The translations under genes were made by a program, and so were the position numbers. DNA of 64,000 nt from Podarcis muralis (taxonomy: Eukaryota), in NCBI RefSeq assembly GCF_964188315.1, contig NC_135667.1, positions 25,172,001-25,236,000 on the forward strand. Direction: 5' to 3'. Below, one piece after another: positions 6,100-55,727 of the stretch; positions within the stretch are counted from its first letter, which is position 1, and the number at the start of each line of letters is the position of its first letter. The notes beneath the pieces are model-generated. The model did not search any database. It worked only from the letters and a program-made list of their open reading frames with translations, and was not told the origin of the DNA.

Positions 6100-6490
6100 A
6101 ATATATACTGCCTCTCACCGTGAAACTCATAAATCAAAGGGATTCCCCAGTGCCTGCCTCAGTGTTGTGCTGCATTTTATTTCATTCAACGTTTTCATAT
6201 GCCTTGGATTTTAAAACTATGAGCTTTCCCCTGGAGAAACTCTATCTTGGCCTCCTTCTTCTCTTGTCTCCACTTCTGCCTCTGCTACAGCCTCTTCCTG
6301 TTCACTAAATCTTGTTACCTTTTCATCTTCGGATACCTCCTCTTCCCAGTCTTCTCCCTCTTCCCCCTCTGAACACACATCATTACCCCACTGCCACTCC
6401 CTAAGCTCTGAGCCTTCTTTCTTTGGTGGTTCTCCAGCTGGTTCCTCCCACCATTCCTCTATGTCCGACCTGCAGTCCAGGACCTCAGCA
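6100..6490 (-). mobile_element. Degenerate LTR of the acidic EEWWE family
   Basis: The minus strand reads DIEEWWEEP...EWQW...SEGEEGEDWEEE, like the LTRs at 27960 and 45298; AATAAA on the minus strand at ~6175. The left boundary is unresolved. Confidence 0.5.
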
Positions 6491-16345: not shown

Positions 16346-16939
16346 ATATAACAACCCTCCACCCTTTTACTGTGTTTTATAGTACATTGTACACTACTAT
16401 GATACTCTCTGTTAAGTGGTCTATAAATCTGATTGTATCTCCAAGCTTGCTGAGCATTTAAAAAGGAAAGAAAAAACAAGTCTGATTTGATCAGAACTAA
16501 GCTTGCACCATCAAGCCTGTTCAGTAGTGTTGCCTGTCTTGGGAACATCCTCCCATCAGAAGTCAAGAAAATAAACAACTATGTGACTTTTAGAAGACAC
16601 ATATGGATTTTTTAAATGTTTGATTGTTTATTATGCTTTCAATATTTTGTTGGCAGCTGCCCAGAGTGTCTGCAGCAACCCAGTCACATGGGTGACATGT
16701 TAATCATCATTATCTCTAACTAAGAGAGTGATATGTTATAGAGGATTTAATGTTGTGCCCAATTTGGAAATACTCAGAGAGGAGCCTTAAGTTATGTATG
16801 GCTGATGTAAATACATTGGAACAAGCATGAGTTTTAAATGTTTCTTCCTTTGTTCATTGAATTACCCCAGCTCCCCAAAAACCTAATAAATTATTTTTTC
16901 TCTGTCTCTAGATAAAAATCATTTTACGAAGCTAATAAA

Positions 16940-17875
16940 ATGGATGTCAGTAATGAAACTGCTCCATCTGAATTCATCCTTCTGACATTTTCAAACAGTT
17001 ATGAATGGTGTTTCCTCCTTTCTGGATTTCTCCTCATCACATATCTCTTCATACTGATGGGGAATATTCTCATCATCACTCTTGTCTCCATAGAACCAAG
17101 CCTTCAAACTCCCATGTACTTCTTCCTCTGTAACCTATCCCTCCTGGACATCTGCCAGACTACAACCACTATTCCACAGATAATTGTGCACCTGATTTCA
17201 GGAAGAAATGCCATCTCATATGAAAGATGCAAGGTCCAACTCTTTTTCTTCATCTTATTCATTGGTACTGAGACCCTTCTGTTGGCTGCCATGGCTTATG
17301 ATCGTTACGTTGCCATCTGCAATCCTCTCCGCTATAATGTGGTCATGAATTACAGACTCTGTGCCCAACTGGTGTCAGCTTCCTGGTTCACAAGTTCACT
17401 CAACACCACCATTCATACCCTTATCACATTCCGCCTGCCCCTTTGTGGTATGAATAAGATCAACTACTTCTACTGTGACATCCCTCCTCTTGTAGCTATC
17501 TCCTGTGGGGACATCTCAAGCAGTATTATTGCCATGCTGGCTACTAGTCCTGTAATGGGCTTTGGACCAGGTATGTGTGTCCTCCTTTCCTATAGTCACA
17601 TCATCTTGAGAGTTCTGAAAATGCGTTCTTCAGATGGGATGAGGAAAGCCTTTTCAACTTGTGCTTCTCATCTCACTGTTGTCTTGCTTTTTTATGGCAG
17701 CTGTCTTTTTACATATGTCAGGCCCTTCTCCAGCTACTCATTGAACAAGGATAGAATGATTGCCCTCTTTAATAACATTCTCTCCCCATTGTTGAACCCA
17801 CTGATTTACACCCTCAGGAACAAAGATGTGAAGGGGGCATTACAGAAGAGAGTGATGAAGAAAATGTTGTCCTGA
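16940..17875 (+). CDS. Olfactory receptor OR4, 311 aa, intact
   Basis: Full OR motif set; tandem duplicate of OR3, 4692 bp downstream. Confidence 0.97.
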   Translation: MDVSNETAPSEFILLTFSNSYEWCFLLSGFLLITYLFILMGNILIITLVSIEPSLQTPMYFFLCNLSLLDICQTTTTIPQIIVHLISGRNAISYERCKVQLFFFILFIGTETLLLAAMAYDRYVAICNPLRYNVVMNYRLCAQLVSASWFTSSLNTTIHTLITFRLPLCGMNKINYFYCDIPPLVAISCGDISSSIIAMLATSPVMGFGPGMCVLLSYSHIILRVLKMRSSDGMRKAFSTCASHLTVVLLFYGSCLFTYVRPFSSYSLNKDRMIALFNNILSPLLNPLIYTLRNKDVKGALQKRVMKKMLS

Positions 17876-20328
17876 AATAGACTAATGTCAATAAATCCTT
17901 GGATTTATCTTGTAGTAGTGCTGGGAAATTGAATGTGGGGGCTTGGAACACTATAGCTAGGGCTTAAGATTTCAGTTTTTGTTTCAAAGCCTGTGGGGTG
18001 TTCCAAATATTCAGTTTAGTAGTATGCCAGAATCTTTCCTCCAATTTATTGAACACCCCCCCCCCAGCACTATTTCATATCATTCCTAAATATTGTAATG
18101 GAAAATCTGCTTAGTTGGAAGATGCTATCTGTATTAACCTTTTATTTTTCCTGAAAGGATTAAATCTTTGTTGAAAATACATGAAATATAAGCCATCAAC
18201 AATTCTATTTCTATACCTCCAGTATGTGTCATTTTTAATGAAATACAACTGTTTCCAAATATAGCACTTGAGAGCTGGATCCAAATTTGGTCATGCTTGG
18301 GGAAAGCCTATTGAAATCAGTTAGGGTAGTCAAGTACGAATAGAAATGTAGGCAAAGAATAAAAATTCCAGGTTTGAAAGGACTACCTTCCCAGGTTGAT
18401 GAGCCCCATCTGCTACACACACCCACACACATGCACACACACACTACGTTGGTTAACCGCTTTTGTTTTGCTCTGCTTAATCTGTAATGTAATTATCATT
18501 GCATATTGTCTTTTTCTTTTCTGTTATCATAACCAATAAAATAATGCATTTCCATCATGACACTTGTTGGCATCTGTTTCAAGAAACAATAGAGTGTACC
18601 TCCACAGTGAAGTGGAGCATTAGTAGCACCAAAGTGACTATTTAGGTTGTTAATATTGTGCATATGGAAACAGGGAGCTGCCTGTACTCGGAGTTTTAAT
18701 TTGTCAGATACAATCATGAGCTTACATTATTGGTATGGTATTGATATTGTCTTTTTAAAAAGCAGTTATTAAGTGGTTACATAAATAGACACTGATTTCA
18801 TTAAAAATATGTTCTTTTTGAGAAACCTCTGGTCTTTCAGATGTTGCTTGAGTATAGATCCCATTGCACCTAACCATTAGCCATGTTGCCTGGGGCTGGA
18901 GGGAGTTGGAGTCCACATTACATCTGAGGACCATAGTTTCCTGCCCTTGTGTTATGCTTCAACTATATAAGATGTTAACTGCAATTTTTAAATGCCATTT
19001 TTAGCATCACTTGATATCTTTCAGAAACTAGTGTTGTCTGTGGTCCACTTGTGAAAAGCATAAAGCCTGCACACCAGACCCCTAGTCTTGATCTGGATGG
19101 TGGGCCTGCACATTTCTTTACTTTTTAAAGAAAGTAGTTGGTGTTTTGCTTCAGGAAACAAGATTCACAGTAATTTATTGCAACTTGCATTACTACAGGC
19201 TGAGATCAACCAGGGTATGAAAAAGAGATGAAGCTGGGTAGCATGGAGACCCAAACTGACATCAAATACCTCGTATTTTCACATGAGCATTTGGTTTTTT
19301 GTGCTACTATGCGGGGAAATGTGAGAACTGAAACACAATTAACCTTGATAATGCATACTTCTCAAAATTTTGTAACATGGCTCCTCTGCCAAATAAAGCA
19401 TGCATTTACTGGGTTGTGGTGTTGGTGCCTAAAATTCATAAAAAAGTGTATATTTGGGAACATTTACAATAAAATACTGAGGAATAGTCATGAGGATTAA
19501 AAGAAGAAGACTTTAATATAATGTGGAAATCTGAATAATTGAATTGAAATGGGGGGCATGGGAGAAACTGAGAGAAACCAACACTGACAGATTCACCCAT
19601 CACTACTTAGAGTTTGGACAAGAAATGAACTGTTTATCTTTAAAATGGTCAGGCAAATATCACTTTTTAAAAGAAGGTGTTAACCTGCTATAGGAACTAA
19701 CCCTAACCTTCATGGCACAGGACCTCCAGAGATGCATAGATATCAACCCCATGCCACTCTAAGGTTTATGAAATTAATTCAGGTGAAAAGAATGATTAGT
19801 GGGGTGACAGCAGTTTGAGTCAGAGCATCATGGAGCTTTCGCATCTGAAGACTAACAAGATCTCAGGGTGCTTGCTGTCTCCCTGGAGATCTGATGCAGG
19901 AGTCGTGAGCTTGGCTATCAGAATCTTTAAGTCATATTGCTACCTGTGCTTAGCCTGTGTGCTCATGGGATCAAGTGTTGAAAAGCACCCTAGAGGCCAT
20001 GCAGTCCAACTCCCCTCACCCCAAAGCTTACATTATTATATACGTACAGTTAATAATGAAAGAGTAAGTGGAATCTGTTTAGTAATACTAATAATTTGTA
20101 ATCAAGAATTAGGAAGGACCCTGTAGGCCATCCACCCAGACTCCTGACAGGTTGCAACATTAATATATAGTTTTTTTAAAAAAAGAATTAAGTCGAAACT
20201 ACAATGCAAGAGTAAAACTAAAATACTTCTTCCTTCATGTAAGTTTCTCCAAAACACAAACACCTCAACAAATATATTTTCCCTCTCTGTCCATAGATTA
20301 AAAAAAAACATTTTGTGAAGCTAATAAA

Positions 20329-23702: not shown

Positions 23703-23989
23703 AAGGAGGTTCTCTCAAGGAAATGTACTGTTTCTTTTCTCTTTGTAAATGCATTTTTGTGTGCGTGTGTGTTTATAATCTTATAGAGGAACATACAATG
23801 AACATAAACATCAAGTATTCCTTACAAAGTAATGCAACATTAGGTACAATTGTGGCTATAGAATTCAAGATTTATTTATTTTTTGAAACATACATGACCT
23901 TTCTGTATGATTTAGTTAAGATGCAATTAACTAGCTAAAGCTCTTTGAAAAACCTCTGGCAGTCTTGCCTTGGTGGAAAAGCACTTGGG

Positions 23990-24100
23990 GTAGAAATCCC
24001 CAAAGGCATTATTGCATATATATGAAAGGAAACCGTGAAATCCACAAGCAACCGACACTGAATTCTACCAACAGGGAGAAGGCTCATCTCACAGGTAAGG
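23990..24100 (+). promoter_or_regulatory. Candidate OR5 promoter and 5' exon (paralogue 40370-40475)
   Basis: O/E-like tccccaaagg, TATA-like catatatatgaa, strong donor CAG|GTAAGG at 24095; tandem acceptor aAGcAG just before the ATG at 24811. Confidence 0.45.
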
Positions 24101-24810
24101 AAATGAATGTGTTATGGATGGGAGAACAAAATTTAGTGGGACACATCATTAGTTTGTATTGAAGAAATGCAATCAAAATGAATAAAGGTATGGCACCAGT
24201 TGTGATATAGTCAAATATAGAATGACTCTACTGACCTCTAACATACTATGAATTTTCATCTGCATGTAAGTGAATGAGAACTCATTCGGAACCAACAACA
24301 ATATTGGAGAAAATGTGCATAGAAATGTGTATATTAATGAAAACAGCTTTTGCAAACACATTGTATTAGGGAATGTTGCTTCAGAAATGTATATAGGAGA
24401 ATTATGCAGGTAAACAATTCCGAATTTTCATGTGGATTTTTTCCCCCCCTTAATGCAAGCAGATGCAAAGTTGTGGTGAACTGAACTCAAGCCTGGGGAA
24501 AAAGAGGAAGTGAGAAAGTGGATAGGGAGAAGTTTGTCTCTCTCTGTCACCTAATAGAAGAACTGTGTGGAGACATGCGATGAAACTGAAAGCTACAAGG
24601 TGTAGAACAGATAAATGCTAGTACTGCTTCAAAGGCAAACCACGGAATCCATTGTCACAAGAGACAGTGAATGTCAGCTACTTAAATGTAGAATCTTATC
24701 ATTATAGAGTGGGAAGGGACCCTTGAATGATTTTAAAAGGGTTTTAGACAAAGACTATCAGTTTCTCCTAGCCTCAACAGCTATGTTCTCCTTCCACTGT
24801 TTGAAGCAGT

Positions 24811-25770
24811 ATGCCTCTGAATGCCAGTCTCTTGGAATCAGATATGGAGGCAAAAAACCAATCAGAGCTTTCAGAATTCATCATCCTTGGCTTTAAAAAT
24901 CTGCAGGAGGTACACTACTTGCTGTTCAGTGGATTCTTGATCATCTATTTATTCACTGTGCTGTGGAATACCTTCATCATCACCGTGGCCATAGTGGACC
25001 AGAGGCTCAGAACTCCCATGTATTTCTTCCTTGGAAACCTCTCCTGTCTTGACATCTGCTACATCACTACCACCATCCCTCAAATGTTGCATCTCCTTCT
25101 GACAGAAAGTAGCACCATCTCCTACACAGGCTGTGTGCTCCAGCTGTTTTTCTTCTTTTCCTTTGTCGGCATTGAATGCCTTCTTTTAGCAGTAATGGCT
25201 TTTGACCGCTATGTAGCCATCTGCAACCCACTGCGCTATTCATTGATTATCAAAAGGAATGTTTGCCTGCAGCTGGCTACTGCCTCCTGGGTGGGTGGAT
25301 TTCTCAACTCTGCCGTACACACCTATTTTGCCTTTCAGTTACCCTTCTGTGGAGACAACCACCTAGATGCTTTCTATTGTGACATTCCACCATTGCTGAA
25401 ATTGTCATGTGGGGACATTTCCCTCAACCAAAAGCTCTTGTTAACCATTGGGTTGTTCATAGCCTGGACACCAATGTTCTGTATCCTTCTCTCATATGTG
25501 TACATAATTTCAAATGTTTTGAAAATAAGATCAACAGAAGGGAGGCAAAAGGCTTTCTCCACATGCTCTTCTCATCTAACAGTGGTTCTTCTGTACTATG
25601 GTAGTGCCATCTTCACCTATTTGAGACCTGTTCCCACAGAGTCATCGGTGAATACAAAGCTGATCCCACTTATGTATAGCATATTGACGCCCTTGTTGAA
25701 TCCCATTATATATACATTACGCAACAAAGATGTGAAGAAAGCTTGGCTAAACATAATGGGGAAGATGTGA
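24811..25770 (+). CDS. Olfactory receptor OR5, 319 aa (or 308 aa from the second Met at 24844)
   Basis: NQS sequon, [64 protein letters not shown]. Confidence 0.96.
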
Positions 25771-26012
25771 CTATTCTACACAACATAGCGTTACAAGTTG
25801 TGTCTTAACAGAGTCAGAAATGAGATTAAATTCATATGATACTGATATATTCATTTGTATTATTTTACAGCTGCAAGCTTTTCGATGTACTATACAATTT
25901 TTTATCATAGCACATTTCTTAAGACAAATATGAAATCAATAGTTGTCAAATTTACCTGTATTCTCCTCCATTCCAATGATTTTGATGTTTCTCTGTAATG
26001 TATATGTATCTA

Positions 26013-26185
26013 GATTCAGATAGGTAGCCGTGTTGGTCCGATGCAGTAGAAATATATATATATAGCTCTGTTCCAGTAACAAGAAGCCGAAAGCACCAGC
26101 CTGAAGATGACGAGTGAGACCTCGTCGAAACGTCGCCTAGACACCCCAACTTTTACACGGGAAGATACCCGAGGACACCAAAACC

Positions 26186-26231
<46 letters not shown>

Positions 26232-26253
26232 GTCCCGTAGCACCTTAGAGACT
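26013..26253. mobile_element. Nested Penelope-like fragments: a 3' end of family 1 (minus strand) split by a family 2 fragment (26064-26188, plus strand) between (TA)n tracts
   Basis: Outer parts gattcagataggtagccgtgttggtc and gtagcaccttagagact; the right-hand part matches the reverse complement of the Penelope terminus at ~50880-50905. The inner part carries a hammerhead motif. Absent in unit B (~43530). Confidence 0.7.
26098..26137 (+). ncRNA. Minimal type I hammerhead ribozyme motif (Penelope family 2)
   Basis: CTGAAGA-t-GACGAG-tgagac-CTCGTC-GAAA-CG-TC-gcc: core boxes, a perfect 6-bp stem II and a palindromic ACGT stem III; stem I is weak. Confidence 0.7.
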
Positions 26254-26671
26254 GGACATTTTTTATTATTATTTTTATATATGTATATGTATATTAGACA
26301 GACACTTGTGTGGGCCCATTCTCCTGAAACAGTGTGGAATACAGTGAAATTATTGTGATGTCTTCATTATATATTTATTTATACTATGTTTACCTTTTCC
26401 CATCCTTCAGTATTTATGCATTCCTCTCAAGTATATTGAAATAGTCTGGTTCCACTATGAGTCAATTGCAACCCACTTCAATCTGTCCCTGACACAAAAT
26501 AGGATTTGCCCCGCCTCTGCTATTTCTCCCCTGACCCTTCCAGTCAGCCCTCTTTCCTCCAAGACAAAAGTCCCTATTTTGGTGCAGAGAAAAATGCACA
26601 AGGTCTTGGAGGGCTCAGTTATTTCTCTAAATATTTAAACATTAAAGGAGAACATAAGTAGCTAGGGACAA

Positions 26672-26884
26672 GTAAAGGTAAAAGCTAAAGGACCCCTGAC
26701 AATTGAGTCCAGTCATGGACGACTCTGGGGTTGTGGCTCTGGGGTTGCGGCGCTCGTCTCGCTTTACTGGCCAAGAGAGCCGACGTTTGTCTGCAGACAG
26801 TTTTTTCGGGTCATGTGGCCAGCATGACTAAGCTGCTTCTGGCGAAACCAGAGCAGTGCATGGAAATGTCATTTACCTTCTGCT
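26672..26884 (-). mobile_element. Sauria SINE (Squam1) 3' part
   Basis: gtaaaggtaaa (ACCTTT tail, reverse complement), gacccctgac...gggtcatgtggccagcatgactaagc.gcttctggcgaa.ccagagcag; absent in unit B. Confidence 0.88.
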
Positions 26885-27293
26885 AACGCGTGCTCACATC
26901 TACGGATGTGGGTCGAAGTGTTGTATGGGCCTACACCCCGAGGAATGTCCTGATAGACCCTGGGTGCAGATTTTTGAAGGGGCATGAAGCAGTTGCCCCT
27001 GACAGGCACCTCTAGTGTGGCCCGGTCCAGCGCTCCTCTCCCAGCATCAGATGAAGCAATGCTAATGGAGAGGAGCTCCAGGCAGGGCAGTCCTTCTGTC
27101 TTCCAGGAACAGGAAGGATTTGAACAGGCAAGCACAGCGACAGCTTCTATGTAGAAGAAGTCACAGGGTGCTTGCACTTGCACTGTTAGATACGTGTACT
27201 AAGGTTTGCTTTTGTGCGTGGCCACACATTGCTCCAGCAGTCCAGCTCAGAGCACAAGCCTGGGGAGGGGTGCCAGCTGCCTACCCACCAGGA

Positions 27294-27341
<48 letters not shown>

Positions 27342-27679
27342 AGTGCACCTCAGGAGCTACTATGCTTTGTCAATAAAGAAATAAACTACCAGCTGTTTGT
27401 CATCATTAGGTTGTGTGTGCTTGAGTCACCAGATATGAAATTTCCTATCCCTGGTCTATAGTATTGCTTTAACTTGCTGCTCTTTCAAGGATCAAGTGTT
27501 TTGAATTTATTCATCATTTCAATGAACTCAAATGATAAATATACTACTACTTATAGCAATTATTTCAGATAGAACACTAAAAAAGAAGAAAAGCTTAGCC
27601 AATTCTTTTTTTTTTTAAGCTTAGCCAATTCTAAGCAAGTTGTACATGCCCTCTGAAGGAGCAGGTATGTAGTTTGGGG

Positions 27680-28800
27680 GTACTCATAAATGCTCTGCTA
27701 TCACTTGAGGCTCAGGTGTCCTTGGTGGCATGGAACATCTTCCATCAGCTTCGGCTGGTGGCCCAGCTATGTCCCTATCTGAACAGGGGTAGCCTGACTT
27801 CTGTTGTCCATACTCTGGTAACCTCTAGGTTGGATTACTGCAACACATTATATGTATGGCTGTCTTTGAAGACAATTCAGAAGCTTCAGCTGGTGCAGAA
27901 TTCAGAGGCCAGGTTGCTCACCAGGACAAGACAGTTGGGGCATATTACACCAATCCTGGTGTCAGGGACCGTGCTGAGGAGGGCTGCACTGAGGAAGAAT
28001 GGTGGGAGACACCCCCTCTCCCTGATCCTGAATCTTTGCAGGAGCAGGTGGATAGTACAGATTTGGAACAGTGGTTTGCAGAGGGGAATAGTTCAGAAGG
28101 CAGAAGCTGGGAAATACTGGGTGGGGGACTGCCAGCAGAAGAAGCAGTGGAAGATAGATGGTTAACAGATTTAGTCTCTGGACAGCATTCAGCCCTCCCT
28201 TCCCCAAAGACACAGAGAGCCCAGAAAGTGTTAAAATAGAAAGTGCAGAGGGTACAAAATCAGATTACAAGACATAGGAGTAACGTAAATTAATAGGGAT
28301 GGAGGGTGGGGGAGGGAGCCTTAATTGGGAGCACCACCATTTCTAGGGAGTTGTGTTCTTTTTCTCTCTCACTGTGATTATTAAAAAATCTAACTGGTAA
28401 GACGTTCCTTTCGTTTGATCTTCTTATTTACCACCATGGGCGAGGAAGCCAATTCTCTTAAGCCTGACATCTGGCTCGACTGCAACGGCTGCCAAATAGC
28501 TTCCGGGTCCAATTTAATGTGCTGCTTTTGACTATAAAGACCTTAACGGCTCAGGACGGCAATACGTCAAGAACCGCCTCTCCCCATATAAACCGTCCTG
28601 GACTCTGCATTTATCATCTGAGGCCCTTCTTCACATGCCTCCTCCACATGAAGCCTGGAGGGCGGCAACACAAGAACAGGCCTTTTCTGTAGTGACTCCC
28701 TGTTTGTGAAATGCTCACCCCAGGAATGTTCACCTGGCACCTTCATTATACATTTTTAGATGCCAGTCAAAAATGTTCCTCTTCAACCAGGTCTTTGGCT
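27680..28800 (+). mobile_element. Old L2 LINE 3' fragment split by an LTR (unit A)
   Basis: SLEAQV..VA...FHQLRLV.QL.PYL...VTSRLDYCN..Y...KLQLVQN..ARLLT is L2 ORF2 C-terminal sequence; it resumes after 28470. Confidence 0.85.
27960..28469 (+). mobile_element. Solo LTR (510 bp) inserted in an L2 fragment
   Basis: TGTCAGG...CCTGACA termini, 5-bp TSD cctgg/tctgg, ATTAAA about 90 bp before the end; removing it restores L2 coding (HITPILA..H.LP). Confidence 0.85.
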
Positions 28801-29191
28801 GATAAATATTCTCCAGCCTTTAAAATGTGTCTGTGGGAAGTGGGGGGATAATGTTGATGAATAAAGGATGACTGTCACAAAACCCTGAGAGAAAGGTGAG
28901 AAGATCATAAATAGCCAGGGGTCCACCACCACCAAAGGCCTCTCTTCTCTCTGTTTTCGTCACTGTGGCAGCAGGAATATAACAAAAACGTTGTCAATTC
29001 AATAAGACTGCAAACCTAGTCCCACTTACCTGGGAATAAGCCCTATTGATATCAACCAGACATTCTTCTGACTAGACAAAATTAGGATTGTGTTCTTATT
29101 CTAGTATGAAGCTGTTTCTGGATAATTTGATAAAAAACCCAGTTTTACTTCCAATTCCTTGATTTTATATGGTTGTTTTATTTTCCTATTT

Positions 29192-29436
29192 GGAGAGCCA
29201 GTGTGGTGTAGTGGTTAAGAGCGGTAGATTCGTAGTCTGGTGAACTAGGTTCGCGTCTCCGCTCCTCCACATGCAGCTGCTGGGTGGCCTTGGGCTAGTC
29301 ACACTTCTTTGAAGTCTTTCAACCCCACTCACTTCACAGTATTTGTTGTGGGGAAGGAAGGGAAAGGAGAATGTTAGCTGCTTTGAGACTCCTTCGGGTA
29401 GTGATAAAGCGGGATATCAAATCCAAACTCTTCTTC
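29192..29436 (+). mobile_element. Squam2 SINE (unit A only)
   Basis: Same consensus with CTT tail; empty site at ~46470. Confidence 0.9.
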
Positions 29437-31060
29437 ATCTATCCTCAGTCACAGCCAAAGAAGGCTGAGTTCATCTTAATCATCAGGTACATTTATTAAA
29501 AGATTATTCTGTTCTATTTCAAGGCATGCCAATTAATTTTCACAATCAATCAGAATATTTGCTGCTTTTTCTTTGGAAAACAGGGTGGATTTCTCTTGGG
29601 CAGAAAATCCTCAAAGGCCTCCTTCATATTTGTGCCTATATAAGCAACAGTGCTTCACTGAAATTAATAAATTGCTCTAGGTTGAAATCCTTCTAGGTTG
29701 AAAAACCACACAGGCAACAAAAGCATACTTTTCTATACAACCTGATGAAATACTTCATTGGACCATATGTCGCTTATCCATATTTATAATATATCTGTCA
29801 TTTTCTTGTTTTATAGAACATTAGAAAGAAAATGGCACCATCAAGAATGGCAGCATCTTAAACTAGGTGATGTTGATAGAGAAGAGATGAATCAGGAGCC
29901 ACAGTGATGTTATTATTTTCGGTTTAGTCTTCAAGAAGTGACTTGGGAACTGGAAGAGAACTTCAGCTGTGGAGAGCTTCAACCACCCTCACTACTGTGA
30001 TATTTGCCTTCATCAAATTCTATTTCGTTCCTTGAAATTCCTCAGATGTTTCTTCAGATTTGCTTCAAAACATTGTGTTGTATGAACTATGGTGACAACA
30101 CAATTCAAGATCTTATCAAGGGTCCTATCAGTGAAGGTGAAGGGTTCTTCAGCTTGACTTCTAACTGGATGCCCAAGAAAGTTGAAAGGCAGGTGACATC
30201 TGCCGCAAATCTGTACTAACAACCTCCTGTATTGTTTCTTGTGGTTCTTGCACTGAGATATGAGGAACAATCCAGACAAAATTCTGCTATTTTGCTGGAA
30301 CATAATTTGCTTCCTTTCACTGTCTAGCAGAGCAGAAACTTCACAGCCCATTTCAAAAATTAGTGTCAGTGCTAGAGATTTGGAACCAGAGAGCATAGAT
30401 GTGCTAGCAATGGTCTGTGTATGCAGTTTTCTAAGATGAATGATCTAATGGAGAATGTTTCATGGCTATTACAACTGGAGATCATACTGAAAATAATATT
30501 GGATCAGGGTTCCCAAGGTAAGATAGATTTGTATACTTAAAGTTATGCTTTAAGAAAAAGTCCTTTCAAACTTCTGCTCATTATGTTCAAAGGATAAAGC
30601 GTAGGGATTGCACGAGTTCCATATTTGCAACAGCCAGTTATTTCTCAATAGTCTGTCTTACTCCTCTAACCATAAAAATGTTCGCCACACACGTCATATT
30701 GATAGCCTTCTTGCTAGTATTTGGTGATAAGGACCCATATGGATTTGAAAATATCAGTTGGATTCACGGCACTCTACATAGATCACCTTCCATATTAGTA
30801 CTTTAGGGATAAGAGCTGATTATGGTATGCTAGGATTTCTTCTGGCAGTGATAAATCCGCAGTGCTTTTGCAGGAAATGTCACAGAGTTATCCTCAGACA
30901 GAAGGATTATCTCTTCTCAAAGAAAGGTCCATCAGAATCATACCTCTGTCATCTTCTGCACTTTATATTGAATATAATGCCAGTGTCACACTATTTATTA
31001 ACATTATCACAATTCATTTCCCTCTTCTCTACAGAAAATCAATTGTTTATTTGCCAAGGT

Positions 31061-31984
31061 ATGGAGGCACAAAATGAAACTGGCCTGTCTGAGTTCATCA
31101 TCCTAGGTTTTAAACTTCTGCAGGAGGAACGTATTTTTCCCTTCAGTGCATTATTAATCATCTATCTTTTCACTGTGCTGTGGAATACCTTCATTGTAGT
31201 AATTACATTGGTGGATCAGAGGCTCAGAACTCCCATGTATTTCTTCCTTGGGAATCTCTCCTTTCTTGACATTTGCTACACTACCACCACAATACCCCAG
31301 ATGTTGGCTCACCTTCTCTCTGAGAGAAACAACATTTCCTACATGGGTTGTGTGCTCCAGGTGTATTTTTTCTTCTCCTTTGTAGGCACTGAGTGCCTCC
31401 TTCTAGCAGTGATGGCATTTGACCGCTATGTTGCCATATGCAACCCTTTGCGCTACACACTGATTATAGGCAAAACAATTTGTCTCCAACTAGCCATGGC
31501 CTGCTGGACTGGGGGTTTCCTCAACTCAGCTGTGCATACAACTTTTGCTTTCCAACTACCGTTTTGTGGGAAGAACTGCCTTGATGCTTTCTACTGTGAT
31601 ATTCCCCCACTACTGAAGCTATCATGTGGTGATACTTCCCTTAACCAAATCCTCTTGCTATCTATTGGTCTTTTCATAGCTTGGACTCCATTACTTTGTA
31701 TCCTTTTGTCATATACCTACATCATTTCAACTGTCTTAAAAATAAGGTCTTCTGAAGGGAGACAAAAGGCTTTCTCCACCTGTTCCTCTCACCTCACTGT
31801 AGTCCTTTTGTACTATGGCAGCTCCATCTTCACTTACCTGTCTTCAAACAGCAGTCACTCCTCAAATTATGCCAGGCTTATTCCAGTGATATACAGTGTC
31901 TTGACACCACTCTTAAATCCTATCATATACACTTTACGCAACAAGGATGTAAAGAGTGCCTGGAGAAGCATGATTAGACATACA
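31061..31984 (+). CDS. Olfactory receptor OR6 (MEAQNETG...), last codons and stop lost in the N gap
   Basis: OR motifs are complete through [23 protein letters not shown], then Ns from 31985. The ORF-track extension to 30827 crosses a splice acceptor (tctctacAG at 31034), so the true start is taken as the ATG at 31061. Confidence 0.93.
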
Positions 31985-32137
31985 NNNNNNNNNNNNNNNN
32001 NNNNNNNNNNNNNNNNNNNNNNNNNNNNNNNNNNNNNNNNNNNNNNNNNNNNNNNNNNNNNNNNNNNNNNNNNNNNNNNNNNNNNNNNNNNNNNNNNNNN
32101 NNNNNNNNNNNNNNNNNNNNNNNNNNNNNNNNNNNNN
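31985..32137. other. Assembly gap (N)
   Basis: Run of Ns truncating OR6. Confidence 1.
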
Positions 32138-32510
32138 TAACACACATTCACAGATTATAGACCTACACTCATTTTTTAAATGTATGCTTGCTTTTAGAAT
32201 ATCATAGTCACACATTGAGTCTGTTGTGGATTAAAGTAATCACAACTTCTGAAAAGTACCAGCTGGTTTCTGACTTGTTTCTTATGTCTTATGCACCATT
32301 CCTTGTTGACAAAATTGACTGAAATGTTTTGAAATGCCAGTTACGTTCAATTGTGTATTCTATGTTACTGTGCAAAAACCTGACATGAATATTTTGCTAT
32401 GAATATAAACTCCACATATTTCTTCTACAGTCCTCCTATTCTCTCTCTCTCTGTGTGTGTGTGTGTGTGTGTGCATGTATTTGTGTGTTGTATGTATTCA
32501 AATGTTTTCG

Positions 32511-32646
32511 AGGTTACAAGCATGAGTTTGACCAAACTGCGGGAGGTAGTGGAGGACAGAGGTGCCTGGCGTGCTCTGGTCCATGGGGTCACGAAGAGTC
32601 GGACACGACTAAACGACTAAACAACAACAACAACAACAACAACAAC
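32511..32646 (+). mobile_element. RTE-BovB LINE 3' end
   Basis: catgagtttgaccaaactgcgggagg.agtggaggacag...ggggtcacgaagagtcggacacgactaaacgact followed by a (CAA)n tail; absent in unit B. Confidence 0.88.
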
Positions 32647-33939
32647 ATGTATTCAAAACAGATTATGCACCATTATGGATGAGGCTCTATATGTCTAAAG
32701 ACACATAAGATTGAATTGCTAAAATAAATCTGTTGTGTGGCAGAACAGAGTTTACTCAAAACAAATTATGGAAGGTGTTGGCAATGTGGCAGCTTTCAAA
32801 CATTGTGGAAGATAATCCCCATTATCTCAGACAAGTGAAATTGTTGTTTGGGGCAAATGGCACCAAAAATGCAAAATAACTGAAGAGAAACATGTTGGCT
32901 ACCTCTCCAGTAATAAAAAAGAGATATACCACTTTTTATTTAATCCTACCAGTGCCTGCTTGGAGACTCTTAACCACAGGCCAGCACTGCTACAGTGCAA
33001 TCCTATAGATGTCTACTGATCACTGCTAGATCAGACTAAGAAATCAAGCATCCTGTTTCCCTCATTGGGCCACAAGATGAGTGGAAAGCTCAAACACAGC
33101 CAACAGCTGTGTTTTACACAGTCTCTGAAACTGGAGGTTCCACAGAGTCAACATGACTAGGCACCACTGATGACTGGTAGCTGCTGCTGGACTTAGTTCC
33201 AATGAATGTGTCTTGTTAGGAGCCATCTAAGGACAAACTAGACATGGGATTAAATGTATGTTTGCATTTAGCATGCAAGGTTTTTAGATGTGCAAATACC
33301 GTCAGCTATGGGAAGGAACTGGAAATTATCAGGACTGAAATAGATGGTGAGGTGGAATTGAACCCGTTTCTCCCTGCTGCACTCCTTTTCTAAAGCTGGC
33401 ATTTAGTTTAGAGGGAAATCTCTGACTGATGAACACCCTGTATACAAGGTTATCATGGTGTATTGCACTATATTTAAAACAAAATAAAACATAAATATTA
33501 CATCCCCTCAGTGGGTTAAACTGTCAGTGCTGCCTGCTACAGTTCCTGAGTCACAGCAACAGAATCCATAGTTACACTAAGTATTTGGAAAGCAATGGAG
33601 TCTTATAGGATTTTGGTTGTTGTTGTTAAGGAAAGTGATAGGAAAATGCCCTGGGGAGTGTAGGAGATGTGATTTGTGCAAACAAATCAGAATGGATGTT
33701 CAACAGATAGCAGAAGTCACCTCCAATAGATAGCATCTCCAAAAAGCTTTGTGAAAATCACAATACTATTTAATAAACTGGTTGCATGGAACTAACACTT
33801 GACCTAGAAATCATTGTCAAGATAGCCAGATCACAAAGTCCTGCACAGCATGGGGCTTCTTCACCCAGCCTAGTGCTGCTCTCTTGGAGCCAGATTCTAC
33901 TTTGCATACCCTGAAAACAAACCCTTGAAATAAACTCAA

Positions 33940-34320
33940 CTTAATTGAATCTCTGTGCTCATTGTCCTTAGGGAGTGGAAAAGTTAACAAGGTTGGAACT
34001 GAAGGGAGTTGTGTTGTTTCAAATGCTTCAGGGAAATGAGGAGTTTGTGCTAAGTCAGATATGGATTTATATTTCAATCAAATGTACCCTTGTGAATAGT
34101 ATTTTGATGCCTGTGAAGATGCTAGATGGTCCAGTCATCCACCAACTTCCTATTTTCTGCTCCAGTTTTCACACACACACACTGATCAAACTTTTTAAAA
34201 GCCAGAGATTCCTGGGGAATATACAGTTGTTTCTTCCAATTCTGCTCTACATTTTAAACAATCTATCTCATCTGAAACAGATGGCAGCTGGAATGTGTTT
34301 CGTGTAAAAAGCAGGTAAAT
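33940..34320 (+). promoter_or_regulatory. Candidate OR7 promoter (homeodomain plus O/E-like sites) and donor; homologues near 52240 and 60040
   Basis: TAATTG at 33942, TCCTTAGGGA at 33965, TTCCTGGGGA at ~34210, cag|GTAAAT at ~34314. Confidence 0.4.
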
Positions 34321-35992
34321 TATTACTAATAGGTTTATGATGTTAGAACTATTGTTGGCAAGAAAAAAGATAGGCATAAAAGAGCATTCCTGGGGCAAGT
34401 ACTCTTTGGTGACAGAATCCCAGCTGGACTAAAAATCACAAAACATGTAGCAAAGTAAAGTACAGATATATAGGCTATAAAATCTGTAAAATATATAATT
34501 CTAAGTTCCTTCCAAGGTTCCCCTCTTCCCCACAATAAAAAGACTGCACGTTTGGTAAGTTAAAAATGATTTACTCATAAACTCTCCAAAGGAGATATTC
34601 ATGTGCTTTTCCATACAGCATTCAGAAAGAATTGCACAGGCAGTAAAACTTGGCTTAGTTACAGTGGTGAAAGTTCCTATATTATTGGTTTTGGAACTTA
34701 ATAGTGGTCTGTAAGAGCTATGAGGTTTGTGTTGCAGCAACCAGCTCAGATATCGTCTTGATTAGCTTGTCTGACCCAAGGTGAGCTAAGCTCAACATGA
34801 CAGCTTGCTCCATGATTTTTGCCTCTTTATGCATGAATTGGACTTTTCAAAAAACATAATTTTATTAATCTAGATTTTCAAGATAGCCTACAATAGAGAA
34901 CCATCAAACAAATTAAAAACAAATAAAAGCAGATTAAAACTAGACTTAAGAATTTCAGTTATATGAGGCTCATTATAATGCATAAACATCAGTTTCCCTA
35001 CTATACCCATGTAATGTGTGAAGCAGTAGGTTGGTTATCACTTTGTGAGTAATGGAAAGGGGTTAGCAAGAACCACATTTTCAGTGCATATCTTATGCAG
35101 GACAGAATATAAGATACTTAGAAAAAGATGCTGTGATTACTAAGGTCTAGGATAGATTTCTAAAAAGCAAGTTATGCCAATTTTCCTTTAAACATCTGGA
35201 AATTAAGAAAGAAAGATTGCCAACAAATGTGAAGAAATTATCCAAAAAATGGGGAGGGGGGAGAGAGAGATGTGAAAACTCACGAATCAATGTCAGTAAA
35301 AAGAATACTTATTCATTTTAAAGCTATGACTCTTACTGTTAAAACGAATAGAATTTTAAAGGCAAATCAGTTGATTACGTAGTTAGAAAAGGTTAAGTTC
35401 AGTTGTTTGATATTATGCACATATGGGTATTTGCATATTAATAAATTATATGTTCTAAATTACTACATTGAACAATATATGTTAAAGACAATAGATATTA
35501 CCAGACGTGTAATACAATGTGTGAAAAACAGAATATTTGGGGACACCTCATCGTTTCCCTCTCTGAATTATTGCAGAGGTATGAAAAAGGTGGATGTTTG
35601 AATAAAGCAAGGGTGCAGAAGTAATGAAAGGGTGGGAAGTAGCTGTTTTAAACAATGGCAAAAGTTTGAATAAAGTTGATGTGGGGGGATCCAGAGAGGA
35701 AAGTGGCACAGTTTTAAATGACATAAGAAGTTTGATTGATGGTGAGGTGAACAAACACTGGGTGTGTGTTTTGTTTTAAAAAGCAGTTTTGACAAGGAGA
35801 AATAACAGAGATGATTAGAACACACAAGCGGATTCCAAAAAGAGAAAAATTGTATGGGCAGTGAACAATACCACATCATATTGCAGCTTAGTGGCATCAG
35901 CATGTTCAAGTGATTCCTTAGTGATATGGAATTTCAATCAGGACACCAGTTATAGATACACTTATCATTGCAGGTGGAGTCTTTCGGGTGAT

Positions 35993-36922
35993 ATGTGGAT
36001 TCAGAATGAGACCTCCGTGAATGAATTCATTCTTCTTGGCTTCACCAGTCATCCAACATTGCAACGTATCCTATTGACACTGTGCCTAGTCATATATCTC
36101 ATCACTTTATTTGGCAACAGCCTCATCATCTTCTTGATCTGGGTTGACTCCCGCCTCCATACAGGAATGTACTTTTTCATTGCTAACCTTTCTTTCTTAG
36201 ATATATTTGGCACACAGGTCACTTTCCCCCAGATGCTATTCCATATGGCTTCCAGAACCAATAATATCTCTTTCAACAGATGTATGGCTCAACTCATCCT
36301 GATGCTGTTCTGTGGGATGACTGAGTGCTTCATCCTGGCTCTCATGGCATATGATCGCTACGTGGCCATATGTCAACCACTGCGGTACCCAACCATCATG
36401 AGGATGCAAGTATGCATCCAGATGGCAGGAGCCTGTTGGTTGGGTGGCTTATTCAATGCTGCAGCACTGACAGTTATCACCATAAATTTCCCCTTCTGTG
36501 GGCCCAACCAAATCAACCATTTCTTTTGTGAGGAGCCTGCTGTGTTGCAGCTGGTTTGCATGGACACCTATACAGTAAGAGTCCTCATCTTTGCCCTGAG
36601 TGTCATTGTGCTCATGTTGCCTTTCACTTTTATAGTAATCTCCTACATCCACATTGCCAGGGTGGTGTTCAGCATAAACTCAGCAGAGGGACGGCAACGA
36701 GCTTTTTCCACTTGTGCTACCCATCTCACTGTTGTCACGTTGTTCTACACCACCATCAGCTTCACTTACTTGCAGCCCCGGTCTGAACGAGCTGCAGACC
36801 AGGAGAAGAAAGCTTCTGTTTTCTATGCTTTTTTCTCCCCAATGGTGAACCCTGTCATTTACAGCCTGAGGAACAAGGATGTTAAAGGAGCCTTGTTCAA
36901 ATTGATGGGGAAAGTAAGCTGA
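35993..36922 (+). CDS. Olfactory receptor OR7 (MWIQNETS...), 309 aa, intact
   Basis: LHTGMYFFIANLS, MAYDRYVAICQPLRY, FFCEEPAVL, RAFSTCATHL, NPVIYSLRNKDVK; acceptor tatcattgcAG at ~35973. Confidence 0.96.
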   Translation: MWIQNETSVNEFILLGFTSHPTLQRILLTLCLVIYLITLFGNSLIIFLIWVDSRLHTGMYFFIANLSFLDIFGTQVTFPQMLFHMASRTNNISFNRCMAQLILMLFCGMTECFILALMAYDRYVAICQPLRYPTIMRMQVCIQMAGACWLGGLFNAAALTVITINFPFCGPNQINHFFCEEPAVLQLVCMDTYTVRVLIFALSVIVLMLPFTFIVISYIHIARVVFSINSAEGRQRAFSTCATHLTVVTLFYTTISFTYLQPRSERAADQEKKASVFYAFFSPMVNPVIYSLRNKDVKGALFKLMGKVS

Positions 36923-36939
36923 GTCTCACCTTTAGAAAG

Positions 36940-37260
36940 GGGTTCCTGTCTTTAAAAATCAGGAAAGAAATGGTTGTATGGAAGAGGTGGATGAATTTGG
37001 GTATATTAACGTTATACCAACTGATAAGCAAAGAGGATGAATTTTATATATATTCCATCTTATGAGACAAATATAGAATACCTATAAATGCTCAATGGCA
37101 GTATCTCCAGATAAAAGACTTGCTAACCACCATCTACGGACTAGGAACTTTTACAGCCTCAGAGACCCCAGAGATGTTGAAGCAGCTGATTCATTCTTAA
37201 ACAACAACAACAAAACGACCATCAACCTATATAAATCTTTGTTATTAGCAAACTATTTGA
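36940..37260 (+). mobile_element. Old L1-clade fragment directly after the OR7 stop (paralogue at 55427-55770 after OR9)
   Basis: Homologous in reverse to 57524-57850; contains a (CAA)n expansion; absent after OR10. Confidence 0.6.
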
Positions 37261-38430
37261 TATATAGGTATTGCTGGATTAATGGAATAAAGAATTAGAG
37301 ATCTGGAAAACACAGTTTGGCAGTATCTACCTCTTACATATCCAAGGAAGTTAGTCTGTTCCACATACTTTATATGCACAGCAGAAGAAACCAGTATAGC
37401 CAAGGCAAAAACAGCTGCAATGGGCTTCTCACAGTGTTGATTTAAGCCCAAACCTCACTATCAGAAAACCTCTTTGTTCAGCATTCATCCTGATTTGTTT
37501 GTGGGGAGATTGGATTATGTCTGTTATCTACTGATAGTCCATTCTGATTACTTTACAAGGCAGATAGATGGTGTTGCATTGGGGCAAATGTTATCCTACA
37601 CTTCCCAGGGCATTTTCCCATCACTTTTCTTATTTGAAAAAGCCCAACTCTGGGGGACAAATGGAACCTTTCACTCTCTCACTTTTGTCTTTGCACCTGA
37701 CCTTGAACCCAAACCATGAAATGATCCACAAGAAATTTTGTTGTGAAAAGAGTGACATCACAAAAGACAAAGAGCATCATTTGCTTAATGGGGTTGCTAC
37801 AGGTATAGCAATTGTATATTTATTTATATATTTTATATGATACAAATGTTTACATACTTACTTACAATAAATGTAGCCCATGCCCATCTTTGCTTCTCAC
37901 ACTTTTGTCTGATTCACACATAGATAGAGATGTTTAGAGATGCTACCCTGCTGTTCTAAGTGGATATATGTTGTATCAGCTGTTGTATCAAAGATATCCA
38001 GAATGATATATTTCTTTAAAAATCATTTGATCAGAACAGAACTAACCCTAACCTTCATGGCACAGGACCTCCAGAGATGCATAGATATCAACCCCATGCC
38101 ACTCTAAGGTTTATGAAATTAATTCAGGTGAAAAGAATGATTGGTGGAGTGACAGCAGTTTGATTCAGAATATCTTGGAGCTTTTGCGTCTGAAGACTAA
38201 GAAGATCTCAGGGTGCTTGCTGTCTCCCTGGAGATCTGATGTAGGAGTCGTGAGCTTGGCTGTCAGAATCTTGAAGTCATATTGCTACCTATGCTTAGCC
38301 TATGTGCTCATGGGATCAAGTGTTGAAAAGCACCCTAGGGGCCATGCAGTCCAACTCCCTTCGCCCCAAAGCTTACATTATTATATACTTACAGATAAAT
38401 GAAAGAGTACGTGGAAGCTGTTTAGTAATA

Positions 38431-39672: not shown

Positions 39673-40109
39673 CCCTATCGCAGTGAACTCTACCTGCAGG
39701 GGGAAAAGGCCTAGTGTAAGATGGGTATAAAAACTGCACAGAACAACATTATGGGATTTAAAAATTGGCCACAACTTTGTTCATTCCAGATGTAGGTAGG
39801 CTTTGGCTGAAGCATTGGGCATATATCCATTCTCAGCCCCATGTTTGGGTCAAGGGGCTGAGACTTGAGCTGGGTCAAACTTGGAGTGGAAGGACCACCT
39901 CAAGGAATCCCTGCCTCCCTAGACATGAGTGTTACATTTGTGGAGCCTCCCAATCCTTTGTCAATTGCCCCAGAGGCTCATCATTCAAGGTATACCCATA
40001 TTTGTATTAAGGTCACCATTGTTCTTGATTTATGAAAAGACAGCTACTCCTGTTAACACAGAGAGTTCTCTCAAGGAAATGCCCTGCTTCTTTTCTTTTT
40101 GTAAATGCA

Positions 40110-40155
<46 letters not shown>

Positions 40156-41499
40156 CTTATAGAGGAACATACAATGAACACAAACATCAAGTATTCCTTA
40201 CAAAGTAATGCAACATTAGGTACAATTGTGGCTATACTATTCAAGATTATTATTTTTTTGAAACATACATGACGTTTCTGTATGATTTAGTTAAGATACA
40301 ATTGACTAGCTAAAGGTCTTTGAAAAACTTCTGGCAGTCTTGCCTTGGTGGAAAAGTCCTTGGGGTAGAAATCCCCAAAGGCATTATTGCATATATATAG
40401 AAGGAAATCGTGAAATCCACAAGCAACCCACAATGAATGCTACCAACAGGGAGAAGGCTCATCTCACAGGTAAGGAAATTTAGTGGGACACATCATTAGT
40501 TTGTATTGAAGAAATGCAATCAAAATGAATAAAGGTATGGCACCAGTTGTGATGTAGTCAAATATAGAATGACTCTCTACTGACCTCTAACATACTATGA
40601 ATTTTCATCTGTATGTAAATGAATGAGAACTCATTCGGAGCCAACAGCTCAACTGAAGTTAGTTGCAGTTAATACCTATTGATATTTATTTTAAGTCATG
40701 AATAACTTGACCCAGTGGTTTCAATTGACATATAAAGTGCAACCTTACAGATAACTACTTAGTCTATCTCAATGAGTTTAGTAATGCTCACTCAGAGACA
40801 ACTTTCTTCAGGTATGCAGCCATAGTGTGGCTCTGACACAAAGCATTTTAAAGGATAATGAAAAACAATTATTTAATAAAATGTCACACATTAGTGGTAA
40901 CCCATGGGATCTCACATTCTGAACTTTTGTCCACATCTGTTGTTGTTGTTGTGGTTTTTTTGTTGCATGTGTGTTTATCATCTTCTTTGTGTTTGGATTT
41001 CCACATATGGGAAAGCAAATATTTGCCCAATAGATTAGAATTAGTTTTTGTGTGCTGCAAATGAATTTGTCCATGTATTCTATATGTCCTTACATGATTG
41101 CTTAATTATAAGATAGCCAGAGGTTTGAAGCAGGCAACAGTAGATTGAAAAGAAATATGAAAAATCAGATTAGAAATCCCCTAAGAAGAGTTAACATATA
41201 ATATTTGACAATCCAACTAACCGTGCACTTCTTGAATTTCATCCTTTAAAAGCCATTGTGTATAAGAGAGAGTGCTTCTAAATGACATAGTGAATTTAAT
41301 TGATGGACTCAGTGGCTACCAGATTATACCGATGGTTTTCTTTAGGGTTTTCAGAAGAGGACATGTTAAATGTAGGTGTATTTAAACATCAATATACATA
41401 TGTCAGGGAGCCCAAGCCTAATTAGGATTTCCCATCTGTGAACACTCAAGTGTCTAAATATTTGGGTATGTTGTCAATGTTTGAACAATTGACACAGAA

Positions 41500-41795
41500 A
41501 GCACCTGGTTAGCTCAATTGGTTAGAGTCTGGTGCTGATAGCACCCTGGTTGCAGGTTTGATCTCTATATGTGACAGCTGCATATTCCTGCATTGCAGAA
41601 GAGGGGGTTGGACTAGATCAGCCTTTCTCAACCTGTGGGTTTCCAGATGTTGTTGAACTACAACTCTCATCACCCCTAGCTAGCAAGGCCGGAGCTCATG
41701 GATGATGGGAGTTGTAGTCCAACAACATCTGGGGACCCACAGGTTGAGAACCACTGAACTAGATGATCCTCAGTGGCTCCTTCCAATTCTGTAAT
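41500..41795 (+). mobile_element. Squam3-type tRNA SINE split by a hAT MITE
   Basis: A box ggttagctcaattggttagag, B box ggtttgatc, CR1-like tail ggactagatgatcctcag.ggctccttccaa. Confidence 0.75.
41619..41756. mobile_element. hAT-type palindromic MITE (138 bp)
   Basis: TIR cagcctttctcaacct / aggttgagaaccactg, 8-bp TSD gactagat/aactagat, long internal inverted symmetry. Confidence 0.85.
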
Positions 41796-42346
41796 GTGGC
41801 TTTCCACACCACACCCCATCAAAAGAAAATGTGAATAAAGAAATGTATATTAGGGGGAAATGTGCATAGAAATGCATATATTAATGAAAACAGCAAATGC
41901 AAATGTATTATATTAGGGAATGTTGCTTGCAGAAATTAGGAGGAATATGCAGATAAACAACTTTGAATTTTCATGTGATTTTTTTTTGTTTTTGTTTTTT
42001 TAATGCAAGCAGATGCAAAATTGTGGTGAACTGAACTGAAGGCTGGGGGGGGAAACAGAGAAAGAGAGTGGATAGGGAGAAGTTTGTCTCTCTCTGTCAA
42101 TTAAAAGTAGAAATGTGTGGAGACATGCAATCAAGCTGCAAGCTACAAGGTGTAGAACAGACAAATGCTAGTACCCCTTCAAAGGTAAACAACGGAATCC
42201 ATTGTTAAAAGAGACAGTGATTGTCAGCTAATTAAATGTAGAATCATAGCATTATGGAGTTGCGAGGGACCATTGAATGACTTTCAAGGAGTTTTAGACA
42301 AAGACTATCAGTTGCCCCTAGTTCTCCTTCCACTGTTTAAAGCAGT

Positions 42347-43964: not shown

Positions 43965-44036
43965 TAAACTTGGAACATGTGCAGAGGAGTGCAACCAAGA
44001 TGACCAAGGGTCTGGAAACCAAGACTTATGAGGAAC
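43965..44036 (+). mobile_element. CR1 LINE fragment
   Basis: Translates KLEHVQRSATKMTKGLETKTYEE, the typical CR1 ORF2 C-terminal motif LERVQRRATK. Confidence 0.7.
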
Positions 44037-44390: not shown

Positions 44391-44434
<44 letters not shown>

Positions 44435-44574
44435 ACTGCACCTCAGGAGCTACTATGTTTTGTCAATAAAGAAATAAACTATTAGCTGTTGGTCATTCTT
44501 AGGCTGTGTGTGCCTGAGGCACCAGACATGAAATTACCTATCCTGCTGCTTTAAGGATGAAGATGATGTTATGT

Positions 44575-45064: not shown

Positions 45065-46110
45065 GAGCTTTGGCTGGTGGCCCAGCTATGTCCCTATCTG
45101 AACAGGGATAGCCTGACTTCTGTTGTCTATGCTCTGGTATCCTCTAGGTTGGATTACTCCACCACGTTATACGTGTGGCCATCTTTGAAGACAATTCAGA
45201 AGTTTCAGCTGGTGCAGAATTCGGAGGCCAGGGTGCTCACCAGGGCAAGACAGTTGGGGTATATTTCACCAATCCTAGCTCCACTGCACTGGCTGCCTGC
45301 CAAGGCTCTATCAAAGCTTCAGGGAATTATGATCCCTCCCCCGATGGCAGTCAAAAGGCAAATAACCGAAAGAGTTCTTACCATATAATTTATTCATTAT
45401 TCATAGAGAGAGACAAAGAATGCTGTCTTTACAACAATGGTGTTACTCCAACTGAGCTGCTCCCCCCTCTCTTCCTAGCAACAGCATTTCCCCTTAAGGT
45501 GGCTATCAGGGGCTAATTGTCTCTGAGTCCTTCATTCTTCTACTTTCAATGCACATTGAGTTCTGGGAGAAGGGGGGTCAGAAATGCTCTCCAGTGATAA
45601 TGTGTCAGCTGGCTGCTCTGGTTGTGTCACCCACTTCTCTTCTCCCAACACCCCCCAACTCTTCTGTTCACCTGTCTCTGAGCTGTGACCTTCCTCAAAC
45701 CACTGCTGTAATTCAATACTGCCTTCCTCTTCTCTGGAAGGTTCAGGGGAGAGCACGTCTCCATCATTCCTCCTCAGTCGAGTCCCTGACACTGCCAATT
45801 AGCTTCCGGGTCCAATTTAATGTGCTGCTTTTGACTTACAAAATCTTTAATGGCTCAGGACCGCAATACTTCGTGGACCACCTCTCCCCATATAAACCAT
45901 CCCAGACTCTGTGTTTTTCATCTGAGGCCCTTCTTCACGTGCCTCCTCCACGTGAAGCCTGGAGGGCGGCAACACAAGAACAGGCCTTTTCTGTAGTGAC
46001 TCCCTGTTTGTGAAATGCTCGCCCCAGGGATGTTCACCTAGCACCTTCATTATACATTATACATTTTTAGGTGCCAGCCAAAAATGTTCCTCTTCAACCA
46101 GGTCTTTGGC
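45065..46110 (+). mobile_element. Old L2 LINE 3' fragment split by an LTR (unit B)
   Basis: Paralogue of 27680-28800; LPISFRVQFNVLLLTYK...QAFSVVTP continues after 45792. Confidence 0.85.
45298..45791 (-). mobile_element. Solo LTR (494 bp) of the same family, reverse orientation, in the paralogous L2
   Basis: TG...CA termini, perfect 5-bp TSD ctgcc, AATAAA on the minus strand; the minus-strand start tgtcagggac matches 27960. Confidence 0.85.

Positions 46111-55684: not shown

Positions 55685-55727
<43 letters not shown>

Follow-up and report, generated by a model that had tools for sequence, protein, structure and literature searches.

The U3 of a lizard chromovirus LTR probably encodes the C-terminal tail of Pol

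An acidic, Trp-rich reading frame lies in the U3 of a solo LTR at position 27960 of our window, which is the whole 64,000-nucleotide stretch of Podarcis muralis DNA that we analysed. This frame is very probably the C-terminal end of Pol from a squamate Gypsy chromovirus of the Tf1/sushi type, and the tail was likely a disordered tether or nuclear-import segment. An earlier note on this DNA had offered two explanations: an undescribed accessory protein comparable to nef or sag, or a C-terminal tail of pol. The second is borne out by junctions at which integrase and chromodomain sequence reads into the LTR frame. The note's retroviral analogy does not hold, as the element is a Gypsy chromovirus and not a retrovirus.

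The features of the window are listed in Table 1. The LTR at 27960 belongs to a subfamily that we call c1, and its frame reads VRDRAEEGCTEEEWWETPP...QWFAEGNSSEGRSWEIL...PSPKTQRAQKVLK before the stop. The sequence and translations that had been reported for this frame agree with the DNA. As claimed, it has no ATG: there is no in-frame Met in the c1 frame. The other two forward frames of this LTR have early stops, and the one frame that is open across c1 copies begins at LTR base 2. The frame had been described as about 280 nt long. The frame itself is real, but that end point, the stop at 28237-39, is specific to this copy, as it is found in just 3 of the 30 best family copies. Because the stop at 28291-93 is present in 27/30, the frame of the family has about 110 codons, not 92. 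Besides the premature stop, the window copy is broken by a patch (~28171-28197) where the register is lost from one shift until a second, compensating one; SLDSI, a motif of the family, is found there in another frame.

The ends of the c1 LTR and its 5-bp target duplication match the Sushi-type pattern TGTYANR...CNTNACA, which is tabulated for Sushi in PMC3601003 (Table 3). A scripted check found the 5-bp duplication in 17 of 30 fetched c1 copies. The R start in Table 1 was deduced by position from a c2-type 5' LTR with its PBS (L309) and from family Y (see below), not from c1. c1 is extinct.

Table 1. Features of the window that relate to the LTR frame
Feature	Positions	Strand	Remarks
Left target-site duplication, 5 bp	27955..27959	+	right copy has a one-base mismatch
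Solo LTR, subfamily c1, Tf1/sushi-type chromovirus, TGTCAGG...CCTGACA, 510 bp	27960..28469	+	fits the Sushi att motif
Putative U3-encoded Pol tail frame, ~110 codons in the family	27961..28293	+	junctions, selection, AlphaFold model
Inferred R start (self-primer position), ~30 bp beyond the family stop	28323..28333	+	position only
Poly(A)-signal-like ATTAAA	28380..28385	+	
Right target-site duplication, 5 bp	28470..28474	+	differs from left copy by one base
Solo LTR, subfamily c2, 494 bp, with the same tail frame, decayed	45298..45791	-	perfect 5-bp target duplication
c3 LTR fragment with the same acidic Trp-rich frame	6276..6460	-	82% identity to bases 22-207 of the complete c3 LTR

The earlier note had grouped the c1 LTR with diverged copies at 45791 and 6490. 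These do carry the same frame, but they belong to separate subfamilies, c2 and c3, and the c3 copy is only a fragment. Since the three window copies represent three subfamilies, their differences record evolution between source elements. Genome searches found at least 1,471 candidate copies of c1, 2,159 of c2, and 2,608 of c3, with possible overlap between these counts. The best 40 copies of c1 have 82-87% identity over the whole length.

The window contains a tandem duplication, with blocks at 23709-38038 and 40065-56573 that are mostly 83-94% identical. The c1 LTR at 27960 and the c2 LTR at 45791 are independent insertions in opposite orientation; they hit paralogous positions in the two blocks that differ by ~19 bp. 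The host repeat at these insertion sites is presumably an L2-like LINE remnant. It was found as the flank of 0/59 other LTRs, so we saw no target preference, and the paired insertion may reflect coincidence or a local hot spot. A second set of tandemly duplicated blocks occupies the left portion of the window (4097-5517, 8653-10128, 12149-13350, and 16842-18042; 83-95% identical). Outside the window, a truncated end of a c2-type element is present in clustered copies at 78.11-78.46 Mb of contig C7 (G000; L058, L059, L068-L073, and L078). These copies were probably spread by local segmental duplication.

To find the sequence upstream of the LTR, we searched for a purine run (the polypurine tract, or PPT) followed by the start of the LTR, which led to three fetched loci with common upstream sequence. 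There, an integrase SH3/GPF region is followed by a chromodomain, a short linker that runs through the PPT, and then VRD..EEEWW. When used as a query against the genome, this internal piece had 43 matches. We scored 20 distinct junctions, all of them decayed, whose LTR start came from a script (12 further chromodomain loci without such a start were excluded). Of the 20, 12 are in phase with the LTR frame and 8 are out of phase (p = 0.013 versus an expectation of 1/3). With a four-copy cluster collapsed and one c1-like junction read by eye added, 10/18 are in phase (p = 0.043). One locus (L100) has a single open frame of 421 codons that runs from the integrase core into the LTR. Its matches to Pfam's SH3_Tf2-1 and Chromo are above the cut-off (for Chromo, 26 bits versus 25.1). 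Because the chromodomain, linker, and PPT read into the LTR frame, both here and in family Y (23/30 junctions; see below), we take the frame to be the C-terminal tail of Pol. Also, the junctions confirm the proposal of an ORF with an internal start and an end in U3.

LTRs of c1-like, c2, and c3 type are all preceded by the chromodomain motif. Using tblastn, we found PR-RT-RH-IN-chromodomain followed by a c1-like LTR (L302/303). In another element (L309), gag and pol come after a c2-type 5' LTR. The order PR-RT-RH-IN, seen with tblastn in L302/303 and others and with Pfam in the Pol of family Y, is that of a Tf1/sushi chromovirus. In L309, the PBS and the R start form 10/11 pairs, including 3 G:U pairs, as read by eye. 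A pattern search for a c1 or c2 5' LTR with its PBS gave 25 matches, none of which was then followed by gag, and no c1 5' LTR was found. As a side observation, a near-intact retrovirus-like pol and env (L063, reverse complement, 3-5125) lies within a few kb of the end of a decayed chromovirus.

The earlier note had suggested looking for full-length elements with two LTRs. The 10-kb stretches that we fetched contained no c1 or c2 element that was intact with two LTRs, so the continuity of Pol and LTR in c1 and c2 rests on decayed copies. However, a young sister family, Y, includes a full-length element (L176) whose LTRs are 99.3% identical and which contains gag and a 1,347-codon pol, and in this family the pol frame enters U3. 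L176 itself is out of phase at the Pol-LTR junction. Among its 30 closest relatives, 23 junctions are in phase, and in 19/30 the frame continues for 209 codons in the 757-bp LTR. As the Y Pol stop is at LTR base 629, the whole of the inferred U3 lies within the frame. The PBS of Y is an 11-nt perfect complement to LTR bases 610-620. A PBS that is complementary to the start of R is described as a signature of self-priming in the Tf1/sushi group (10.1101/2022.12.06.519325, PMC6317226). In family Y, gag and pol are overlapping ORFs with a -1 frameshift; the c1 and c2 copies are too decayed to show their arrangement. Family Y (L178) also has a degenerate chromodomain, without a Pfam match, and an extra internal segment of ~150 residues before the PPT, which is acidic and contains Trp.

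In a tree of integrases (36 rows, none dropped), c2 and c1b, a close relative of c1, are sister to the group that contains Y (support 100/100), and all of these belong to a squamate clade (support 99/98). The next proteins outward are chromodomain-bearing Gypsy proteins from amphibians, fish, and fungi; this tree was built without named sushi-ichi or Tf1 references. The tails of c1 and Y are not homologous to each other.

The tail might instead be a separate accessory protein, made from a spliced or subgenomic RNA, from an internal start, or by protease cleavage, and acting as an acidic transactivator or an antagonist of host defence. We consider this very improbable. nef, sag, and foamy-virus Bet are analogues for such roles, and the acidic residues of the tail, mixed with Trp and Phe, look like activation domains. 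An in-frame ATG two codons upstream of the LTR in family Y would suit an accessory protein as well, and cleavage of the tail from Pol is compatible with the DNA. On the other hand, the in-frame c1- and c2-type junctions have no stop and no ATG from the chromodomain to the LTR, which argues against a nef- or sag-like protein. Also, three RNA runs contained no splice joints on Y, with low coverage that was partly read-through and an internal depth mostly below 10x. Among the sequencing runs that were listed as containing the sequence, none is recorded as RNA.

To check for selection on the frame, we aligned 80 natural LTRs as DNA, without regard to frame, and used pairwise comparisons to compute the net omega between subfamilies. 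In the Pol frame, net omega was 0.37 (interval 0.19-0.59) between c1 and c2 and 0.26 (0.14-0.48) between c1b and c2. Between c1 and c1b, which are close subfamilies, it was 0.70 (0.38-1.34), which is not significant. In contrast, omega was 1.4-2.0 in the other sense frames. The antisense frame that shares its third positions with the Pol frame had omega of about 0.4-0.9 and contains stops; its low omega is the expected shadow of the Pol frame. In the downstream LTR, omega was never clearly below 1. Part of c2 is out of register with c1 in the DNA alignment, which should add noise. The comparison of dN/dS by frame between subfamilies thus upholds the suggestion that the frame was under purifying selection, and it does so for this frame only. 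The 5 and 6 synonymous third-position changes that had been counted in two hand-aligned blocks are present in the sequences.

Variants that are shared by at least 3 copies are more often synonymous in the Pol frame than private variants, which occur in one copy (44% versus 27%; p = 0.0005, or p = 0.017 with CpG masked). There was no such difference in the other U3 frames, and in the downstream LTR, one of 12 tests gave p = 0.03. Private variants are neutral in all six frames. Comparing Y to four relatives gave omega of 0.29-0.43, with all intervals below 1. Y relatives that are 27% apart share the 209-codon frame and its stop, and one of two Y3 copies is frameshifted. The signal in this frame exceeds chance: purifying selection acted on the tail in the Pol frame only, while the source elements replicated.

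We also considered tolerated read-through, in which Pol lost its stop and acquired a tail with no job, so that the conservation would reflect enhancer motifs in U3 or GA-rich composition. Omega is moderate (0.3-0.4), the tails vary greatly between families, and U3 is under promoter constraint anyway. Also, short extensions into the LTR appear to be common in relatives from fish and frogs, where the position of the LTR is inferred. However, constraint on DNA motifs would not favour the third positions of one frame, and the enrichment of synonymous changes among shared variants is seen in the Pol frame alone. Both the retention of the frame and stop among diverged Y relatives and the recurrence of W-containing motifs in c1, c1b, and c2 also speak against read-through, which we view as very improbable.

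The tail peptide of c1 has an acidic, Trp-rich part, followed by SP(K/R)TRR and a basic helix: residues 1-78 include 24 D/E and 4 W, and residues 79-110 include 8 K/R. The motifs EEWW, QWF, SWExL, and SP(K/R)xxR are common to c1, c1b, and c2. When we used AlphaFold on six natural copies, we obtained no fold (pTM 0.24) and one confident helix at residues 84-108. The residues before this helix are predicted to be an acidic, Trp-studded disordered region. We speculate that SWEIL could be read as an LC3-interacting motif and SP(K/R)T as a CDK site. The c1 tail had no match in Pfam and no usable match in the ESM Atlas. A weak search for longer proteins that contain the c1 tail passed 0/148 candidates, and a profile of six c1-type tails had no match among 240 fetched related proteins.

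Among database proteins, those from Anolis and Podarcis extend for 94-317 residues beyond the last helix of the chromodomain, versus a median of 21 for 75 unlabelled matches. The Anolis proteins end in a tail of 95-105 residues that is acidic and then basic, and the Podarcis proteins share this plan. Matches from fish and frogs mostly have shorter or unrelated extensions. Judging from the junction pattern, the Anolis and Podarcis tails presumably lie in LTRs. These proteins have been automatically named "Gypsy retrotransposon integrase-like protein 1," without mention of an LTR-encoded tail. The earlier note had allowed that the peptide might already be annotated as the tail of an integrase. 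An automatic gene model from Podarcis (P0121) does include a Y-type LTR tail, which is not marked as LTR-encoded, but the c1 tail is unmatched. The last residues of some Anolis and Podarcis Pol tails are RRSARI or RRSARL (P0001-P0004, P0049, P0136, P0140, and P0143). RRSARL is described as an HMGN-type motif that binds the acidic patch of the nucleosome (PMC12487698). The RRSxR core of this motif was found in 0/30 c1, 0/20 c1b, and 1/30 c2 copies. Separately, four database entries from Rhineura and a frog (P0010, P0057, P0078, and P0202) have pieces of chromovirus integrase or chromodomain inside models of host genes (TM9SF2, MBNL1, a KRAB protein, and a transglutaminase). These fused models are probably annotation artefacts, or possibly exonisation.

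As the junctions show, Pol lacks a stop before the PPT and continues in register from base 2 of the 3' LTR. The tail would stay on integrase and supply motifs for nuclear import or tethering. Solo LTRs that arise by recombination keep the tail without a start, and the tail then decays neutrally. Because the bases of the tail also serve as U3, the promoter region is double-coded. The integrase tethers of Ty1 and MLV, in which a short tail motif selects target sites, are our working model; there, the coding sequence of the tail lies in the internal part of the element and not in U3. By analogy, we think the odds slightly favour short motifs of the tail contacting chromatin or host nuclear proteins and thereby shaping import or target choice beside the chromodomain. 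The IN1 tail of Ty1 is described as binding AC40 of Pol III (PMC10050235), and MLV IN as binding BET proteins (PMC4027182). For these tethers the partners have been identified, whereas the lizard tail is a putative tether.

The two families differ in where they are found. We identified at least 1,008 exact 3' junctions of Y. On contig C1, 12/57 of the Y junctions are in the last 0.23 Mb, and 16 are in the first 0.32 Mb of contig C2. Among the best 40 copies of Y, 17 lie no more than 0.6 Mb from a contig end, versus 0.63 expected. For c1 solo LTRs, 0/40 are near contig ends, so there is no positional bias. In 11 stretches that were selected as terminal (L320-L330), Y and its relatives, with LTR identities of 65-93%, are embedded in TTAGGG arrays and in a subtelomeric satellite of 500 bp. 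Several Y-type insertions share the same position in the satellite, in both orientations. The clustering of Y could arise in part from retention in DNA with low recombination or from amplification along with the repeats. A bolder idea, which we consider doubtful, is that U3 encodes a family-specific targeting module in squamate chromoviruses and that the 209-codon tail of Y steers integration into telomeric repeats and a subtelomeric satellite. With the targeting module in U3, the LTR and the integrase tail would evolve and swap as a unit. If this is true, then Y would be a vertebrate LTR retrotransposon that targets telomeres, an animal parallel to the CRM elements of plants. We found no description of telomere-clustered Gypsy elements in squamates in the accessible literature.

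Thousands of repeats in this lizard genome that pass as non-coding LTRs are remnants of a protein segment that was under selection. In family Y, which is young, the whole of U3 is protein-coding, with the promoter and the integrase tail on common bases. Surveys that use reverse transcriptase or the integrase core would overlook such U3-encoded tails. Also, if the tail sets target choice, then the dispersed c1 and the end-clustered Y offer a natural comparison of site choice by vertebrate chromoviruses.

It is useful to compare the lizard elements to other elements with coding sequence in the LTR. The coding sequences of HIV nef and MMTV sag overlap the U3 of the 3' LTR, and these are separate genes with their own start and spliced RNAs. 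In contrast, the lizard frame is the end of Pol, and in c1 it has no start codon of its own. The closest precedent is the CRM and Reina chromoviruses of plants, not HIV or MMTV.

In group A of CRM, which are centromeric chromoviruses of plants, the Pol ORF is described as extending into the 3' LTR, where it encodes the CR motif, a putative targeting domain (PMC3059260). The lizard Pol ORF likewise extends into the 3' LTR. The CR motif of CRM group A replaces the chromodomain, whereas the lizard elements have a chromodomain upstream of the PPT and an unrelated tail of 110 residues in the LTR. CRM elements use tRNA-Met priming in plant hosts, while the lizard elements have a PBS of the self-priming type (in family Y), belong to a squamate clade, and have a vertebrate host. 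In Beta vulgaris, Bingo 1-4 and 7 are described as having their chromodomain ahead of the PPT, with an ORF that runs on into the flanking LTR (PMC3605345); this is the same layout as in the lizard element, but in a plant clade.

The vertebrate Tf1/sushi chromoviruses (the V-clade) have the same domain order as the lizard element and are probably of the same clade; the c1 tail itself is unmatched. Active chromoviruses are described from reptiles (PMC3670739), and PMC3601003, which models Sushi LTRs, does not contain "ORF" or "open reading frame." In the accessible literature, which excludes subscription papers and Repbase, we found no account of long, selected, U3-encoded Pol tails in squamates; an earlier mention is possible. 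The extension of Pol into the 3' LTR is already published for plant chromoviruses, and the lizard case is a real feature that is a variant of that layout.
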